From the IMG/VR virus record IMGVR_UViG_3300003690_003472, positions 96,001 to 160,000 of that record: a stretch of DNA of 64,000 nt. One strand, 5' to 3'. Shown piece by piece: positions 27,230-56,571 of the stretch (position 1 is the stretch's first letter; each line of letters begins with the position of its first letter). This DNA comes from a virus. The translations under genes and the position numbers were made by a program. The notes below the pieces were generated by a model that saw only the letters and a program-made list of their open reading frames with translations, was not told the DNA's origin and made no database searches.

Positions 27230-28420
27230 ATGATTTTTCAAACGTTTGATGATAAAAAAAATTGTTATGCCATTTATGCAAATAATAAGATTTACTCAAA
27301 AGGCGCACCCTCACGACTGAACCTAACATCGACTTGGGATTATTCTGAATTTCTGAGAGACAAGGATATTTTATATGCAAAATATTATTGTGGTGGAAAG
27401 CCCCTTTCAGAAATATGCCCAGAACATCTTAAGGGAGAGTGGAAAAGTGTTTTTAATAAATTAAAAGCCTTTTATAGATCTATTAACGAGACAAAATTAA
27501 ATTTAAGTGAGCATTGTTTTTATGATATGCTTCCTTCTTATATCTTGTTAGAGTATGGAAAGATTAAAAACAAAATTTGTTCTTATATATTTGAAAATTA
27601 TGAAAAACCATTAGATTATAAATTTAAAGTTGAGCTGACAAAAGTTTTAACTGAAATGAAGAATAAAAAGTTGAATATTGATCTCTTGGCTATGAAAAGT
27701 CGTCGGCATGAGTTTAAAGTTCGTCAGTTCATTAAGAAAATAAAAGAAACACCACCTTTTGTTGTTTATGATGCATGCGGCACAAAAACAGGAAGATTGA
27801 CATCAAAGAAGTTTCCCATATTAACTATGGACAAAAGTTTTCGAAAAATATTAAAACCGAACAATAGCTGGTTTTTAGAACTTGACTATAATGCAGCAGA
27901 ACTTCGTGTGTTGCTTGGCTTATTGGACACAGAACAACCAAAAGAAGATATACATACTTGGAATCTACAAAATGTTTATAAAGGAATTGGAACAAGAGAA
28001 AAAGCTAAAAAAAGAATATTTGCATGGCTATATAATCCCAAATCAAAAGATTACATTTCTAGTCGAGTATATAATCGAGAAGAACTTTTAGAAAAGTATT
28101 GGGATGGCGAATATGTAAAAACATACTTTAATAGAGAAATCAAAGCAGACGAAAAACATGCCTTGAATTATATTGTACAATCAACTGCTGCAGATTTGTT
28201 TTTGCGCCAAATGATCAAAGTGTGGGAATATTTAAAAGATAAAAAATCTTACATTGCTTTTTGCTTGCATGATTCTTTGGTGATTGATTTGCACACAGAA
28301 GACGAGATGCAAATAAATGACATAAAAGAAATTTTTGAAGATACTGAACTAGGTAAATTTAAAGTTAATTCGTATGGTGGAAAAAACTTTAAGGATATGA
28401 AGAGGTTAAACGTAAAATAG
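27230..28420 (+). CDS. polA: Minimal family-A DNA polymerase (polymerase domain only)
   Basis: KTGRLTS. Motif A LDYNAAELR, motif B REKAKKRIFAWLY, motif C LHDSLVID. No exonuclease motifs recognised. Confidence 0.85.
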   Translation: MIFQTFDDKKNCYAIYANNKIYSKGAPSRLNLTSTWDYSEFLRDKDILYAKYYCGGKPLSEICPEHLKGEWKSVFNKLKAFYRSINETKLNLSEHCFYDMLPSYILLEYGKIKNKICSYIFENYEKPLDYKFKVELTKVLTEMKNKKLNIDLLAMKSRRHEFKVRQFIKKIKETPPFVVYDACGTKTGRLTSKKFPILTMDKSFRKILKPNNSWFLELDYNAAELRVLLGLLDTEQPKEDIHTWNLQNVYKGIGTREKAKKRIFAWLYNPKSKDYISSRVYNREELLEKYWDGEYVKTYFNREIKADEKHALNYIVQSTAADLFLRQMIKVWEYLKDKKSYIAFCLHDSLVIDLHTEDEMQINDIKEIFEDTELGKFKVNSYGGKNFKDMKRLNVK

Positions 28421-34934: not shown

Positions 34935-34963
34935 TTGACATATGTTATCATTGGTGATATAGT
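34935..34963 (+). promoter_or_regulatory. sigma70-type promoter for tRNA-Leu/Val
   Basis: TTGACA-N17-TATAGT with TG extension. Confidence 0.75.
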
Positions 34964-34976
34964 GTATAGAGTATTT

Positions 34977-35061
34977 GGCCGAATGGCGGAATTGGTAGAC
35001 GCAACGGACTTAAAATCCGTTATCCGTAACGGGTGTGGGGGTTCAAGTCCCTCTTCGGCTA
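34977..35061 (+). tRNA. tRNA-Leu(UAA)
   Basis: Acceptor GGCCGAA/TTCGGCT. Anticodon arm ACGGA-CTTAAAA-TCCGT. Long variable arm, TTCAAGT T-loop, A73. No encoded CCA. Confidence 0.95.
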
Positions 35062-35071
35062 CATAAAATAT

Positions 35072-35264
35072 GCCCGGGTAGCTCAGTCTGGTTAAGAGCG
35101 CTATCCAGTAGGACACTAAGGTCTGCAAGCGCATGACAAACACGGGAGTGATCATCTCGCTGCAGCTTGATTGATCCTAGCCGAAGTTAAAACACTGCAA
35201 GGGTTTTGAGCAGTGGATCTACGTTACGAGATGGAGGTCGGTAGTTCAAATCTATCCCTGGGTA
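35072..35264 (+). tRNA. tRNA-Val(UAC) interrupted by a 117-nt insert at 32/33
   Basis: 5' half 35072-35106 (GCCCGGG, GCTC/GAGC D-stem, CTATC-C). 3' half 35224-35264 (TTACGA-GATGG, AGGTC, GGTAG-TTCAAAT-CTATC, CCTGGGT-A). Joining the halves gives loop CT-TAC-GA. Confidence 0.8.
35107..35223 (+). ncRNA. Structured intervening sequence (putative tRNA intron of unknown class)
   Basis: Ends pair (GTAGG/TCTAC and CACT/AGTG). Internal hairpins at 35121-35137 and 35143-35159. Last nt is G. Confidence 0.65.
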
Positions 35265-37296: not shown

Positions 37297-37369
37297 ACTC
37301 TCGTAGCTCAGTTGGTAGAGCAAGCGGCTCATAACCGCCCGGTCGTAGGTTCAAGTCCTACCGGGAGTA
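37297..37369 (+). tRNA. tRNA with CAU anticodon, probably Ile2 (lysidine), otherwise elongator Met
   Basis: ACTCTCG/CGGGAGT acceptor with C4-G69. AGCGG-CTCATAA-CCGCC anticodon arm. GTAGG-TTCAAGT-CCTAC T arm. Confidence 0.88.
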
Positions 37370-37374
37370 CTTAT

Positions 37375-37446
37375 TGCGGGTTAGAGTAGTGGTTACTCAC
37401 AAGTTTCATAAGCTTGTTTAGGTGGGTTCGATTCCCACACCCGCGA
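37375..37446 (+). tRNA. Initiator-like tRNA-Met(CAU)
   Basis: TGCGGGT/ACCCGCG acceptor (U1-G72), A11-U24, CAAGT-TTCATAA-GCTTG, GTGGG-TTCGATT-CCCAC. Confidence 0.82.
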
Positions 37447-37461
37447 CTTTAAAAGGACTAA

Positions 37462-43603: not shown

Positions 43604-44463
43604 TTAATAGTTTTCACTTAGCTGGTATAGTTCCAGTTGCTGGTCAAAAATTAGATTTTGATTTTCCGTGGCACGATTGTTTACAGCCAATTGGTAAGGA
43701 TTATTTAGCTGTTGAGCGCGCCGTTTGGGAGTGCGCTTGTGCTGGGTGCGAAACAGTGTGGATCATTTGTCACGATGACATGCAACCTCTTATAAGATAT
43801 CGTCTAGGTGATTATGTTCAAGACCCCAAACAACACAACCTCACTAGAAAAACGTTTCCCAAGGAGCACGAGAGAACTATTCCTATTTATTATGTACCAA
43901 TTCACCCACGAGATAGAGATAAGAGAGATTGTTTGGGGTGGAGTATACTTTATGGTGCACTTACAGCTTATTGGTTAAGCAAAACACTCAGCAAGTGGGT
44001 AGTACCCAATAAATTTTATGCTGCATTTCCATATGGAATCTACGATCCAGAACTATTATTAACTTGGAGGTCCAAAATATCAAGCAAAAAACCATTTCAT
44101 GTTTCTTATGAAAATAAAACTATTAAAAATAATGAATATCTGGGATTTACTTTTGATGCAGAAGATTTCAAAGAAGCCCGCAGAATTATTAGAAAAGAAG
44201 GAACAGGAGAGTTTCCAGATTATAATGCAAGTAAAAGAATTCCAATAGAAAAAAGATGGTCGGCGCGGTTTTTTGAACTTGACAAAATATTTAAGTATGT
44301 TACAATGGGTGATATAAAACTTGAACTACCATGGTATTATAAAATAGACAATTGGGAAGGCTTGCAAGCTTATTTTAAAAGTGAGAAAAAGCTTGAGAGA
44401 CCACCCCGGGATATATTGGGATATCATGAGTGGAATTTAATTGGAGTAGATAATGAAAAGTAA
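43579..44463 (+). CDS. Degenerate sugar-phosphate nucleotidyltransferase-like protein
   Basis: LAGIVPVAG, LQPIG, AVWECACAGCETVWII, IRYRLGD follow the NTP_transferase N-terminal pattern. GxGTR and PK are replaced. Confidence 0.6.
   Translation: MVETGLQLINSFHLAGIVPVAGQKLDFDFPWHDCLQPIGKDYLAVERAVWECACAGCETVWIICHDDMQPLIRYRLGDYVQDPKQHNLTRKTFPKEHERTIPIYYVPIHPRDRDKRDCLGWSILYGALTAYWLSKTLSKWVVPNKFYAAFPYGIYDPELLLTWRSKISSKKPFHVSYENKTIKNNEYLGFTFDAEDFKEARRIIRKEGTGEFPDYNASKRIPIEKRWSARFFELDKIFKYVTMGDIKLELPWYYKIDNWEGLQAYFKSEKKLERPPRDILGYHEWNLIGVDNEK
44279..44306 (+). promoter_or_regulatory. sigma70-type promoter for dnaE (inside upstream ORF)
   Basis: TTGACA-N16-TACAAT with TG extension. Confidence 0.5.
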
Positions 44464-47400
44464 AATACCTTTTGTTGGATTGCATGCACATAGCGGCGTC
44501 GGTTCACCGTTTGATGGGTTGGGATATCCACAGGAACACATGGACTTTGCTTATGAAAATGGCTGTGACGCATTAGCGCTGACAGATCACGGAAACATGA
44601 ATGGTTTAGCATATCAAGTGTTGCATGCTAAAAAAATGCAAGAGGAAAACAAGAACTTTAAACCAATTTTTGGAGTAGAAGCTTATTTCCTTCCAAGCCT
44701 TTCCACGTGGAAAAAAGAATATGATAAAGCAAAAGAAAATAAAAAATCCAAACGTACCTTAGACAACTCTAGGTCTGCTACAACAATTGAAGACGAAGGC
44801 TCATCTAAGAAAGCAGTTAAAAATATTTTAAATCGAAGACGACATTTAATTCTTTTAGCTCAGAATCAAACAGGGCTCAACAATATCTTTAAAATGGTTT
44901 CTAAATCTTTTTCTAAAGCTAGCTTTTATCGTTTTCCGAGAGTAGACTATAAAATATTAAAAAAGCACAATGAAGGCGTTATCGCAGCAAGTGCATGTCT
45001 CGGCGGCATATACGCTGGAGATTATTGGGAAAACAGAGAAAAAGGAATAGAAGCTGTTGTTTGTGCAATGCAAACGACTACACAAAAAATGATGGACATT
45101 TTTGGTGATAGATGGTATGGAGAACTTCAATGGAACAACATTCCAGAACAGCACGAATTAAACAAATATATTATTCAAATGTCAGAAAAATATGGTTTTA
45201 ATTTAATCTCTACTGCCGACAGCCACTACCCTTCACAAACTGCATGGAAAGATAGAGAATTATATAGACGCTTGGGGTGGCTTGGAAAAGGTTCTGCGCC
45301 TTCATGGTTATCTTCCGAACTTCCAATTGGAATTGAAGAGATCGGATATGAACTTTATCCAAAGAATGGCGATCAAATGTGGGAGTCATATAAGACCTAT
45401 TCAGAAGAATGTAAAGTTGAATATGATGATGATCTGGTTTTGGCCTCAATGGAAGAGACATATTATATCGCTCACAGCCGCATAGAGGCGTTTTTACCGG
45501 ACAATACAGTGCGCCTCCCAGACTTTGTAGTCCCACCCGGGTTTACGGCCTCACAAACGCTCTCACAGCTTTGTTTTGAGGGCTTGCGAACATTAAAACT
45601 TCATACAAATGAAGAATATACTGATAGACTTAAGAAAGAACTAGTTGTTATTGATGATAGAGGGTTTAGTAAATACTTCCTTACAATGAACGCAATTGTA
45701 GATAAAGCGAATTCAGTACAATTAACTGGTCCTGGTCGAGGTTCTGCGGCGGGCTCATTGGTGGCATACGTGCTTGGAATTACACAAATTAATCCTATCA
45801 AATATAACCTTCTATTTTCTCGCTTTTTGCGTAAAGATGCAAAAGATTATCCCGATATTGATTATGATGTATCAGACCCAATGGAACTTAAAGAAATGTT
45901 AATTGAAGAATGGGGCGGCGATAAAGTTGTTCCTATTTCAAACTTTAACACATTACAGCTTCGTTCACTAGTAAAGGATATTTCAAAATTTTATGAAATT
46001 CCATTTACAGAAGTTAACACTGTAACTTCTAGAATGTTAAAAGAGGCAACACCGCTAGCTAAGAAAAAACACGGTATTAAGTCGGGAGTTTACAGTCCAA
46101 CATTTGAAGAAGTAATGGAGTTTTCAGAATCTCTCAAGAATTTTCTTGATAAATATCCGCATGTTGCAAACCACATTAATGTTTTGTATGGGCAAATGCG
46201 CTCCGTTTCTCGCCATGCTGGTGGAGTTGTCATTGGTAAGGAACTGAATAAGTATATGCCATTGATTAATAGCGGAGGTGTTACACAAACTCCATGGTCT
46301 GAAGGCCAAAACGTTAGGCACTTAGAATTGATGGGTTTCATTAAATTTGATATTCTTGGGCTGTCGACATTAAAGATGATTGAGGGTGCGATTGGACACA
46401 TTCTTAAGCGACATCATAATATTCCGAATCCTACTTTTAAGGATGTTAAAAATTATTATGATGAAAACCTTCACCCAGAAAAGATTGATTTAAATGACCA
46501 AAAAGTTTATGAGAATATTTTTCATAAAGGTAAGTGGGCAGGAATATTTCAGTTTACAGAAGAAGGCTCTCAAAAATTTTGTAGAAAAGCAAAGCCTCGA
46601 AACATAATTGATGTTGCAGCAATTACTTCTATTTATAGACCTGGGCCTTTAGGAGCAGATGTTGATAAGCTTTATGTAAGGTCCAAGAAAAACCCTGAAG
46701 ACATAGTTTATGAACATGAGCTAGTAAAAGAACTTACAAAAGAAACTTATGGTTTTCTCATTTTTCAAGAACAGATTGCATTGCTCGCTCATAAGCTAGG
46801 TAAAGATATTAGTTTGGACGAGGGCAATAAACTTCGCAAGCTTTTAACTAAAAAGGGAACTGGAGAAGTAGCAAAAGAAAAGTTAAAAATTAAAGAAAAG
46901 TTTATTACTGGGTGCATTGAAAAAGATTTGACAAAAGATTGGGCAAATAAAATGTGGAAAAAGTTTGAATACTTTTCAGGATATGGTTTTAATAAATCGC
47001 ATGCTGTTTCTTATTCTATTATTTCATATCAATGTGCGTGGTTGTTCAACTATTATCCTGCCGAATGGATGGCAGCATTTCTGGACAAAGAACCGGAAAC
47101 TAGAAAAGAAAAAGCAATTAACTTAGCAAAAAAGTTTAAGTTTAAAATTAAACCTGTTAATGTTAATAATTCTGGTGTTGTGTGGGAAATCGCACAAGAC
47201 AATAAGACTTTAATCCAACCCCTGACTTCATTAAAGGGTTTGGGAGAGAAAGCAATCGAACAAATTATTAACAATAGACCTTTTGATATTATTGAAGATT
47301 TTCTCTTTAATGATAATATTATATATAGCAAATTAAACAAAAAGGCTTTGGATGTTTTAGTAAGAAGTGGCGCCCTGAATGACCTAGTAGACGATAGATT

Positions 47401-47878
47401 CACGGGCCTTAAACATTTTTGGTCTGCTACTGTTGTAGATAGGCCAAAAAGCTTAAAGAAACTTGAAGAGAATATTGAATTATATTTACCCGAAGAAGAG
47501 TTTAATGATGAAGAAAAAATTAATAATCTTGTTTCTCTCACTGGTATCTTTCCAATGGATTTAGTTTTGGATAGCTCTGTTATGAATAGACTTGATTTTT
47601 ATAAGGTTCCTCCAATTGGAGAGTGGGACGATGATTTGGGAGTAGCATGGTTTATTCCAAGAGAAATTATTTCAAAGAAAACTAAGAATGGTAAAACGTA
47701 TTGGATTCTCAAAGTAATTGATAATACCTCAACCGTAACTTCAATTAAATGCTGGGGCGTTAATCCAGAGCGAGATGAAATATATGTAAATCGCCCTTAC
47801 ATGAGTAAATTAGACTATGATGAACAGTGGGGATTTAGTACTCGATCTATAAAGTATAACTTTAGAATGTTAGCATAA
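44453..47878 (+). CDS. dnaE: DNA polymerase III alpha subunit (family C)
   Basis: PHP motifs LHAHS, LTDHG, GVEAY, TADSHY. GPGRGSAAGSLVAY, catalytic PDIDYD, SRHAGG, FIKFDILGL, YGFNKSHA. Confidence 0.95.
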   Translation: MKSKIPFVGLHAHSGVGSPFDGLGYPQEHMDFAYENGCDALALTDHGNMNGLAYQVLHAKKMQEENKNFKPIFGVEAYFLPSLSTWKKEYDKAKENKKSKRTLDNSRSATTIEDEGSSKKAVKNILNRRRHLILLAQNQTGLNNIFKMVSKSFSKASFYRFPRVDYKILKKHNEGVIAASACLGGIYAGDYWENREKGIEAVVCAMQTTTQKMMDIFGDRWYGELQWNNIPEQHELNKYIIQMSEKYGFNLISTADSHYPSQTAWKDRELYRRLGWLGKGSAPSWLSSELPIGIEEIGYELYPKNGDQMWESYKTYSEECKVEYDDDLVLASMEETYYIAHSRIEAFLPDNTVRLPDFVVPPGFTASQTLSQLCFEGLRTLKLHTNEEYTDRLKKELVVIDDRGFSKYFLTMNAIVDKANSVQLTGPGRGSAAGSLVAYVLGITQINPIKYNLLFSRFLRKDAKDYPDIDYDVSDPMELKEMLIEEWGGDKVVPISNFNTLQLRSLVKDISKFYEIPFTEVNTVTSRMLKEATPLAKKKHGIKSGVYSPTFEEVMEFSESLKNFLDKYPHVANHINVLYGQMRSVSRHAGGVVIGKELNKYMPLINSGGVTQTPWSEGQNVRHLELMGFIKFDILGLSTLKMIEGAIGHILKRHHNIPNPTFKDVKNYYDENLHPEKIDLNDQKVYENIFHKGKWAGIFQFTEEGSQKFCRKAKPRNIIDVAAITSIYRPGPLGADVDKLYVRSKKNPEDIVYEHELVKELTKETYGFLIFQEQIALLAHKLGKDISLDEGNKLRKLLTKKGTGEVAKEKLKIKEKFITGCIEKDLTKDWANKMWKKFEYFSGYGFNKSHAVSYSIISYQCAWLFNYYPAEWMAAFLDKEPETRKEKAINLAKKFKFKIKPVNVNNSGVVWEIAQDNKTLIQPLTSLKGLGEKAIEQIINNRPFDIIEDFLFNDNIIYSKLNKKALDVLVRSGALNDLVDDRFTGLKHFWSATVVDRPKSLKKLEENIELYLPEEEFNDEEKINNLVSLTGIFPMDLVLDSSVMNRLDFYKVPPIGEWDDDLGVAWFIPREIISKKTKNGKTYWILKVIDNTSTVTSIKCWGVNPERDEIYVNRPYMSKLDYDEQWGFSTRSIKYNFRMLA

Positions 47879-54996: not shown

Positions 54997-56571
54997 ATGC
55001 CACGAAAATATGAATCTGGAACAAGCTTACAACAGAAAATTTTAAAAGGTGTTAATGTGTTAGCAGATAATGTTGCTTCAACACTAGGTCCGCGAGGACG
55101 CAACGTTATTTTACATCATCCAGAACAAAATCCTGTAATTACAAAAGATGGAGTAGCCGTCGCTAGATTTATAGAACTTGAAGATCCATTTGAAAATGTT
55201 GGCATACAAATAATTAAACAAGCCGCTTCCCAAACTAGCATCGAAGCTGGCGACGGCACCACAACTTCTACTGTTTTAGCTAGAGCAATTCTCACACAAG
55301 CACAGCGATATTTAATGGCTGGCGCCGCGCCCATTGAACTTAAAAAAGGTATTGATAAGGCTGTAAAAGTTATTGTACAAAATTTAAAAGAAATTGCACA
55401 ACCCATTGCTTCCATGGAAGATGTCACACATATTGCAACAATATCAGCAAACAATGATAGTACTATAGGAAAATTAATTGCTAAAGCAGTAGAATTGGCA
55501 GGTAAAGATGGCGCAATTAGTATTGAAGAAGCACGATCAGCTGAGACAAGCCTAGATTTATTAGAAGGTTTTCGCTTTGATTCTGGATATATAGCAAATG
55601 CTTTTGTAACAGATGAAAAAAGGGGAATAGTAAGGTATGATGATCCGTTAATTTTAATTACAGATGAAAAAATCGACTCCGTTGAAGAATTGATGCCTGT
55701 TTTAGAATTAGCTGCAAGAGAAGGGCGCCCATTTATTATTGTAGCTGAAAACATTGAAGGACAAGCGTTGGCTGCATTAATAATGAATGCTGTGCGCGGC
55801 ACCATGCGCATTGTTGCTATAAAAGCACCACGATATGGTGAAGAAAGACGTAATATCCTCCAAGATTTATCTTTATCAGTAGGTGCAACTTTTGTTTCAA
55901 GACAAAACAATTTAAGACTACGTGATATAAAATTGAATCATTTTGGAAAAGCAAAATCTTTTGAAAGCAGCAAAAGTTTTACAACAATTGTTGGTGGAAA
56001 AGGCAGCATGGAAGACATAGAAAAAAGAATAGATTTACTAAAGGCACAGGTGAGGGAAACAGACAGCTTAAAAGATTGTGAAAAAATTCAAGAAAGAATT
56101 ACGAGACTCGCTAGTGGCATAGCTGTTATTCGAGTCGGCGCTGCAACAGAAGTAGAAATGGTAGAGAAAAAGCATCGAATTGAAGATGCGCTCGAAGCTG
56201 TTAATGCAGCCCAACTTGAAGGAATTGTTCCTGGAGGAGGAGTTGCATTAATTCGAGCAAGCAAAAACATAAAAGTAGAAACCAACAGCGAAGATCAAAA
56301 GCTTGGAGTAAAAATAGTTTGCGAAGCAGTTAAAGAGCCTTTAAGACAAATGGCACTAAATGGTGGATATTCTCCTGATATTTTTATTTCACTAGTTTCT
56401 AAAGCTAGTGGAAATAAAGGAATTAATTTTAATACAGGGAAATTAATAGATCTTTTAGAAGCTGGGATTGTTGATCCAGTAAAAGTTACTCGATGCGCAT
56501 TGCAAAACGCGGCATCAGTTTCTTCAACTTTAATCACAACCAATCACGCCATTATAGAGTCTTCTAACTAA
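54997..56571 (+). CDS. groEL: Chaperonin GroEL
   Basis: LGPRGRNV, ITKDGV, GDGTTT, EKKHRIEDAL, GIVPGGG, GIVDPVKV. No GGM tail. Confidence 0.95.
   Translation: MPRKYESGTSLQQKILKGVNVLADNVASTLGPRGRNVILHHPEQNPVITKDGVAVARFIELEDPFENVGIQIIKQAASQTSIEAGDGTTTSTVLARAILTQAQRYLMAGAAPIELKKGIDKAVKVIVQNLKEIAQPIASMEDVTHIATISANNDSTIGKLIAKAVELAGKDGAISIEEARSAETSLDLLEGFRFDSGYIANAFVTDEKRGIVRYDDPLILITDEKIDSVEELMPVLELAAREGRPFIIVAENIEGQALAALIMNAVRGTMRIVAIKAPRYGEERRNILQDLSLSVGATFVSRQNNLRLRDIKLNHFGKAKSFESSKSFTTIVGGKGSMEDIEKRIDLLKAQVRETDSLKDCEKIQERITRLASGIAVIRVGAATEVEMVEKKHRIEDALEAVNAAQLEGIVPGGGVALIRASKNIKVETNSEDQKLGVKIVCEAVKEPLRQMALNGGYSPDIFISLVSKASGNKGINFNTGKLIDLLEAGIVDPVKVTRCALQNAASVSSTLITTNHAIIESSN

Follow-up and report, generated by a model that had tools for sequence, protein, structure and literature searches.

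A split tRNA-Val gene in a phage genome

The window analyzed here is a stretch of 64,000 nucleotides (nt) within a 185.6-kilobase (kb) IMG/VR virus record (IMGVR_UViG_3300003690_003472) from a deep-sea phage, and the element in question is a 117-nt insert that splits a gene for tRNA-Val(UAC). The gene occupies positions 35072-35264 of the window, and its two halves become a canonical tRNA only with 35107-35223 taken out. The 5′ exon (35072-35106, plus strand) carries the 5′ strand of the acceptor stem, the D arm, the 5′ strand of the anticodon stem (35101-05), and C32 at 35106. The 3′ exon (35224-35264, plus strand) brings U33, the anticodon UAC (35225-27), G37, A38, the 3′ strand of the anticodon stem (35230-34), the T arm, the 3′ strand of the acceptor stem, and A73; the CCA end is not encoded.

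As it stands, the split gene receives no call from ARAGORN run without introns, and none from Rfam. After excision of 35107-35223 in silico, ARAGORN calls a tRNA-Val(UAC) with the loop C32-U33-UAC-G37-A38, exactly the loop that an earlier, sequence-only reading of the window had predicted. That reading had also described the tRNA halves as intact and mutually complementary, and checking the pairs base by base we find the same for all four stems: the acceptor stem (35072-78/35257-63; 7 base pairs, bp, including two G-U), the D stem (35081-84/35096-99), the anticodon stem (35101-05/35230-34), and the T stem (35240-44/35252-56). The split gene is confirmed, and it is more than a chance arrangement because 19 other variants carry an insert at the same site of a homologous tRNA.

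Nine nt upstream of the split gene lies a tRNA-Leu(UAA) gene (34977-35062, plus strand; called by ARAGORN, and by the Rfam tRNA model with 59.8 bits), and the two are probably co-transcribed. Upstream of the pair there is a promoter-like site (34935-34963, plus strand) with TTGACA, a 17-nt spacer, and TATAGT, together with a TG element. It is a consensus match alone, sigma-70-like at 11 of 12 positions, and such sites are as numerous in the region as shuffled sequence would lead us to expect.

A family of inserts at one tRNA site

The first relatives of the insert came from walking via homologs of a neighboring phosphomannomutase-like gene, which gave contigs with the same tRNA, the same split site, and a similar insert length, where the insert interior has diverged and its ends are identical. 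These identical ends then served as scan patterns for more members. Further synteny look-ups added three members (L148, L158, and L160) that are independent of the end patterns. The resulting family has 20 distinct variants, 109-139 nt in length, from about 35 marine phage and metagenome contigs. All variants sit in the same NAC-anticodon tRNA gene, one per genome, and anticodon positions 35-36 are A-C wherever the family occurs, with a single A-U exception. Five other viral records hold one family copy each, and in three members (G001, L158, and L160) ARAGORN itself calls a tRNA-Val(UAC) with an intron. The intron of the window (35107-35223, plus strand) matches R2, the covariance model of the family, with 23.3 bits and an E-value of 5.5e-4. 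Contigs from other samples that align to the window keep the insert with 0-8 differences, and five of the six natural substitutions fall at unpaired positions or preserve a wobble pair. The sequence-only reading had allowed for a one-off pseudogenising insertion; with homologous inserts and their covarying structure this widespread, that idea has to be given up.

Searches beyond these contigs delimit the family. We found no second copy of the insert in the phage's own genome, no exact 21-23-mers of the window insert in IMG/VR and the JGI metagenomes, and, using blastn with four family members, no cultured phage in INPHARED that carries the insert. An end-pattern search of 185,579 prokaryote genomes (GTDB) gave no member; its single match lies inside an open reading frame (ORF) and is therefore false. 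When the scan was run without the conserved 5′ segment (the guide segment described below), it returned only known members and false matches in coding sequence, and the family was not seen in other tRNAs. IMG/VR yielded no intron-less allele with the same anticodon arm, and the insert borders show no target-site duplication. In full-text literature searches we found group I tRNA introns and Lak-phage inserts described, and no description of this intron family. Judged by its sequence, the insert is probably an intron of a previously undescribed family that is compact, ORF-less, structured, and mobile.

A conserved fold supported by covariation

The fold energy of the insert as a single sequence is ordinary (z = -0.95), and thus any claim of structure has to rest on comparison and not on thermodynamics. 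The covariance model was constructed from six gap-free members and rebuilt from its own matches, and it aligns all variants. With a six-helix model and 20 distinct sequences, 91.9% of the cells are paired, compared with 31-43% in slid controls. Changes on both sides are observed in 13 of the 25 pairs, and none of 500 shuffles reaches the observed values. In addition, the members found without end patterns provide fresh compensatory changes in helices He, Ha, and Hc that can be read directly from the sequences. He and Ha are made there of wholly different sequences that keep the pairing, and Hc goes from C-A-C/G-U-G to C-G-C/G-C-G to C-G-U/A-C-G.

The modeled fold that covariation supports consists of a closing helix Hg, a long arm Hf-He-Ha-Hb, and a short hairpin Hc, meeting at a purine-rich three-way junction. 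Hg joins the ends of the insert (35108-12/35218-22, plus strand; 5 bp, checked base by base), which the sequence-only reading had already paired, and the two splice sites face each other at its foot. The weakest helix is Hf (35115-17/35185-87, plus strand), with 69% of its cells paired. He (35126-30/35165-69, plus strand) and Ha (35131-33/35161-63, plus strand) are 98-100% paired and show covariation. The hairpin Hb (35143-46/35156-59, within 35143-35159, plus strand) is given both by the family model and by the base check, and the latter also places the 3′ strands of Ha, He, and Hf, together with a tentative partner for the Hb loop, in 35161-35187 (plus strand). Hc (35193-98/35210-15, plus strand) changes on both sides in four of its five pairs, and is compensated in L148, L158, and L160. 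Two of the hairpins drawn earlier from the window alone are therefore the same as Hb and Hc, the latter being the CACTGC/GCAGTG pairing. A third (35121-35137) is possible on paper in the window but lacks conservation, and the family supports He and Ha in its place.

Three segments are both unpaired and invariant, also in the members found without bias: AGUAGGA at the 5′ end, GAAAC at the junction, and GGAUCUAYG at the 3′ end. The first of them, a guide-like segment (35107-35113, plus strand), is the same in 20 of 20 variants, including seven found without it as a pattern. The last one reads GGAUCUACG in the window (35215-35223, plus strand) and ends in an omega-like G at 35223. The final intron base is G in all 20 variants, which extends to the whole family the group I-like terminal G first seen in the window.

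Other pairings fared less well. A pseudoknot between the Hb loop and the middle of the insert (35150-54/35172-76) is tentative in our model: one of its positions is G-C, C-G, and A-U across three classes, and sequence by sequence 10-50% of shuffles do equally well, and the loops of the long variants are out of place in the model alignment. Px, a long-range helix that RNAalifold prefers, was dropped as part of the core because its distal 3 bp are uncompensated in L158 and L160, unlike Hc; its proximal part is a possible alternative conformer. Hd′, in which a 5′ GAUCC would pair with a GGGUC in the middle, does not hold up consistently in the window, in L087, or in the 138-nt class. By eye, parts of the insert resemble the P/Q/R/S elements of group I introns or the cores of the hammerhead, hairpin, and twister ribozymes; none of these likenesses held across the variants.

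We also observe that the self-complementary GAUC (or GGUC) occurs four times in most members, in the 5′ strand, the Hb loop, the middle, and the 3′ end (in the window at 35120-23, 35150-53, 35173-76, and 35216-19). This recurrence allows several mutually exclusive pairings, and thus possibly conformational switching.

Comparison with known introns and ribozymes

At the gathering threshold and up to E <= 10, Rfam gives no match to the insert in the window or in six other members (L067, L074, L077, L087, L088, and L092), apart from a chance-level Hairpin. This Hairpin match (L074:4531-4566, minus strand; 11.8 bits, E 5.5) lies on the Hb stem, which covaries, and the other classes lack the match; hence we attribute it to chance. 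No match to the hammerhead, twister, pistol, hatchet, or hepatitis delta virus (HDV) ribozyme models was obtained. The sequence-only reading had seen no group I core, no group II hallmarks, and no bulge-helix-bulge, and on each of these the family agrees with it. The group I model RF00028 has no match on the window and the six members, the order of the helices is unlike P3-P9, and a manual mapping of P3-P9 was unsuccessful. Neither is there a group I intron elsewhere to supply the core in trans in G000, G002, G003, and G005, and G001 has only a 15-bit match. For group II, the inserts start with AGUAGG and end with UAYG where GUGYG and AY would be expected, and no Rfam group II model matches. 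A bulge-helix-bulge motif, in which a 4-bp helix stands between two 3-nt bulges with the two cleavage sites, is present at the junctions in 0 of 15 variants. A chimera resembling transfer-messenger RNA (tmRNA) was also rejected: ARAGORN calls no tmRNA, the D arm and the anticodon stem are complete, the stretch in question is Ha/Hb, and no start codon is conserved.

A search of the phage genomes for RtcB or an endonuclease, which had been suggested as a check, came back empty: PF01974, PF01139, and PF09414 (EndA, RtcB, and Rnl2) are absent from G000, G001, and G002, of which G001 and G002 are complete relatives. A T4 Rnl1-like gene is found, among these three, only in G001.

The closest likeness is to the group I introns of tRNAs, with which the family shares the position in the anticodon loop, the start with A and the end with G, a guide-like 5′ segment that could pair with both exons in the same order, the lack of an ORF, and mobility. 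The family differs in its length (109-139 nt compared with about 200 nt or more), in having no covariance-model match, and in having no identifiable G-binding helix. Archaeal and eukaryal introns removed by EndA/TSEN and RtcB/Trl1 are likewise short and sit sometimes at non-canonical loop positions. In contrast with them, the present inserts have no bulge-helix-bulge, belong to a bacterial phage without EndA or RtcB of its own, and have a much more conserved internal structure with invariant ends. Small self-cleaving ribozymes have a similar size, a multi-helix junction, and conserved purine-rich linkers. The family matches none of their models, needs two junctions processed and its exons joined, and has a guide-like pairing that is foreign to them. 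Finally, the "enigmatic" tRNA introns of Lak megaphages (Devoto et al. 2019, PMC6784885) are also phage tRNA inserts outside the Rfam classes, conserved between genomes. They are found in gut Prevotella megaphages, in Thr, Tyr, and other tRNAs, and one of them is tRNA-like; as far as their description goes, which is what we compared, neither a structure model nor a guide pairing is described for them, unlike the present family.

Two groups of alleles

With respect to the tRNA that excision would leave, the variants divide into two groups. The canonical group comprises the window and ten more variants; taking out precisely the intron yields C32-U33-NAC-G37-A38 in each of them, on five or more different anticodon stems, which covary. 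In the second group (L067:96-240, L081:668-812, L083:2000-2134, L086:7100-7234, and duplicates) the 5′ exon always ends with CCGUU and the 3′ exon gives only 4-5 loop bases. Yet these tRNAs have intact bodies, which vary from one lineage to the next. Three further alleles (L066:364-498, L080, and L088:1060-1194) have 10 extra bases before the intron. To rescue the second group we allowed the splice sites to shift, the stem to shrink to 4 bp, or the loop to grow to 8 or 9 nt, and no single rule gives every one of its alleles a canonical loop.

It may be that an invasive element has turned the second-group alleles into dead tRNAs, in which case the phage can do without this tRNA. For a purely "useful intron" interpretation, this second group is the chief caveat.

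A guide-like segment and a proposed splicing pathway

Consider now the invariant 5′ segment as a guide. Its positions 2-6 can pair with the intron 3′ end just before the terminal G, and this holds for all variants. Alternatively, positions 2-4 can pair with U34-A35-C36 of the 3′ exon, and positions 5-7 with the UCC of the 5′ exon in the window, so that 3 + 3 bp can be drawn there with the two exons. In 13 of the 15 variants tabulated, the two bases that end the 5′ exon (CC or UU) can pair with positions 5-6. The 3′-exon UAC followed by G37 resembles the intron CUAY followed by the terminal G, and the order of the partners along the guide is the P10 and P1 order of a group I guide. These pairings, drawn from the sequences, can be reconciled with the data; the guide being invariant, they carry no covariation signal. 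The confinement of the family to NAC anticodons may be due to the pairing of guide positions 2-4 with the 3′-exon triplet, in which the UAU variant keeps a wobble.

Our preferred reading, to which we assign a probability of about 0.5, is that these inserts are a new family of compact, structured, and mobile introns, probably self-splicing by means of a guide and a terminal G. The gene would be transcribed along with tRNA-Leu, and the intron RNA would splice itself following a group I-like logic. The conserved 5′ segment would act as an internal guide, with G5-G6-A7 holding the 5′ exon by its final two or three bases. The guide would then exchange the intron 3′ end (CUAY) for the start of the 3′ exon, which reads much alike (UAC, then G37), and this swap would bring the bond after the terminal G to the 3′-OH of the 5′ exon. 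The product would be a tRNA-Val(UAC) suiting the U34 tRNA sets of these phages, and at the DNA level the element would move between tRNA alleles with short flanks. The tRNAs of the complete relatives are in fact U34 only (Leu-UAA, Arg-UCU, Lys-UUU, Thr-UGU, Gly-UCC, and Ser-UGA), plus Met, and the split gene is their sole Val tRNA; a spliced Val-UAC fits this set.

The "new mini self-splicing RNA" that the sequence-only reading had put forward thereby gains support from the guide-like segment, the terminal G, and the lack of a phage ligase or endonuclease of the families searched, and splicing itself is predicted from sequence. Another of its suggestions, a precursor that masks the anticodon, found no support. 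A stronger version of our reading is possible though doubtful: that RNAs of 109-139 nt, roughly half as long as the smallest group I introns, constitute a new class of self-splicing ribozyme with an unrelated core, which has converged on the guide-plus-terminal-G strategy and is mobile among the tRNA-Val genes of marine phages.

Several observations weigh against self-splicing. A length of 109-139 nt is well below that of any known self-splicing intron, a G-binding helix is not recognizable, and the helix order does not follow the group I topology. The P1-like pairing amounts to 2-3 bp in all, with the anticodon stem as a competitor, and the invariance of the guide segment puts these pairings beyond a covariation test. 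The covariation counts themselves come from model-fitted alignments, which lean towards structure. Simple excision in the second group and in L066/L088 leaves a loop of 4-5 nt or one that is too long; second-group tRNAs could not decode normally, and hence the tRNA function may be dispensable. None of the sequencing runs listed for window-like DNA is an RNA run, and the contigs compared are all DNA. Last, the base at -1 is C and not U in the window (35106) and in all the canonical-loop alleles, and U is found only in the second allele group. The C had been noted before as a departure from group I, and as an observation it stands. As an objection it is less disqualifying because a preprint reports a type of group I intron in tRNAs, Leu.3Cg, in which C stands at -1, with splicing untested (bioRxiv 10.1101/2020.01.27.920355).

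Alternative explanations

The second allele group bears most directly on the possibility that the insert is never excised, being either a structured RNA on a tRNA scaffold (for processing or stability) or a selfish DNA insertion that inactivates a dispensable tRNA. Alleles without a normal loop persist in several lineages and samples, including the complete G002, the element is mobile at the DNA level, and a free-standing HNH-like gene is its neighbor in one lineage. We nevertheless consider this explanation unlikely, since eleven alleles with different stems restore exactly C32-U33-NAC-G37-A38, for which an RNA that is not excised has no reason, a parasite acting at the DNA level would not keep its helices by compensatory change, and the restored UAC suits the U34-only tRNA sets. 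It is quite unlikely that proteins remove the intron, with a host or unrecognized phage endonuclease making the cuts at the two junctions in the internal loop that separates the anticodon stem from the closing helix, the conserved ends serving as recognition sites, and a host RtcB-type ligase joining the exons. Small unclassified phage tRNA inserts are on record in Lak phages (PMC6784885), which this explanation could accommodate, as it could a size under that of every known self-splicing intron and the location of both junctions in one accessible loop beside invariant sequence. Six covarying helices over about 110 nt, on the other hand, far exceed what a protein substrate needs. The absence of EndA, RtcB, and Rnl2 from G000, G001, and G002 and of a bulge-helix-bulge also speaks against it, no conserved neighbor gene of a suitable kind was found, and we know of no tRNA splicing endonuclease in bacteria.

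The size of the family and its three-way junction with purine-rich joining strands resemble those of small ribozymes, and RtcB is common in bacteria (in our control panel). One could thus imagine self-cleavage at one or both ends, giving a 2′,3′-cyclic phosphate and a 5′-OH that a host RtcB-type ligase would join. This is improbable, as it requires two different cleavage sites, leaves the guide pairing with both exons unexplained, and comes with no small-ribozyme match beyond the chance-level Hairpin. More improbable still is a drastically reduced group I intron, most of its core lost, with the active site completed by an RNA or protein acting in trans. Such an origin would account for the a...g boundaries, for the same guide order, in which the 3′-exon partner is 5′ of the 5′-exon partner, and for the same niche in the tRNA anticodon loop (bioRxiv 10.1101/2020.01.27.920355). 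It is difficult to reconcile with the lack of any RF00028 match on the members and of a convincing core in trans, as described above, and with a helix order unlike P3-P9. Moreover, the strong covariation shows that selection acts on the fold as it now stands.

Mobility

Between alleles, the identity of the introns does not follow that of the exons. As an example, L066 and L088 are 98% identical in the intron and 75% in the exons, and L067 and L081 are 97% and 74% identical. The converse is observed for L077 and L066, with 74% in the intron and 91% in the exons, that is, similar tRNA bodies with different intron classes. The near-identical introns share a few flanking bases although their tRNA bodies are just 74-75% identical. 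L066 and L088, one of them in a complete 190-kb genome, have the same odd 5′ flank, and it looks like the intron and its flanks were transferred as a unit. In addition, a 5.6-kb seawater contig (run X2, record 5) is 93.5% identical to the insert (35094-35217) and diverges upstream of 35094, inside the 5′ exon, consistent with the intron in a different tRNA body. From these disagreements we conclude that the element moves between alleles with short co-converted flanks.

In L075, at a distance of about 190 nt downstream from the split tRNA, there is a free-standing ORF of 146 amino acids (L075:5787-6227, minus strand), which also occurs in L076, L084, and L085. Its N-terminus is HNH-like (PHROG HNH, E 6e-5), its C-terminal domain is of a recombinase type, and it is a candidate trans-acting homing endonuclease. 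In T-even and related phages, ORF-less introns spread by collaborative homing, using free-standing homing endonucleases. The family resembles that system in its ORF-less introns, its co-converted flanks, and, in one lineage, the HNH-like gene. It differs in that no endonuclease gene was found near the split tRNA in the window and in most members.

Significance

To our knowledge there are only two classes of self-splicing introns, whose smallest natural examples measure about 200 nt. An RNA of about 110 nt that excises itself and joins its exons would then be a new class of catalytic RNA. It would also offer a compact means of producing RNAs that are circular or scarless. If it is proteins that remove the intron, we would be looking at an undescribed route of tRNA splicing in bacteria or phages. 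Either way, standard tRNA finders would miss functional phage tRNAs, ORF-less introns would be moving between phage tRNA alleles in the ocean, and the question can be tested directly on a transcript of 193 nt.

The phage and its other tRNA genes

The host virus of the intron is, from its gene content, a myovirus of bacteria, because the record encodes DnaE, a family A polymerase (PolA), a tail sheath, DnaB, and a class II ribonucleotide reductase. In the window we find a full DnaE-type polymerase III alpha subunit (44453-47878), the family A polymerase, which is short (27230-28420), and a GroEL-like chaperonin (54997-56571). DNA near-identical to the window is found in hydrothermal-vent and seawater metagenomes. 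Downstream of the split gene there are two tandem tRNA genes with CAU anticodons (37297-37370 and 37375-37447), separated by 4 nt. ARAGORN and Rfam call both tRNA-Met, and one of the two could be an initiator tRNA or a lysidine-type tRNA-Ile.
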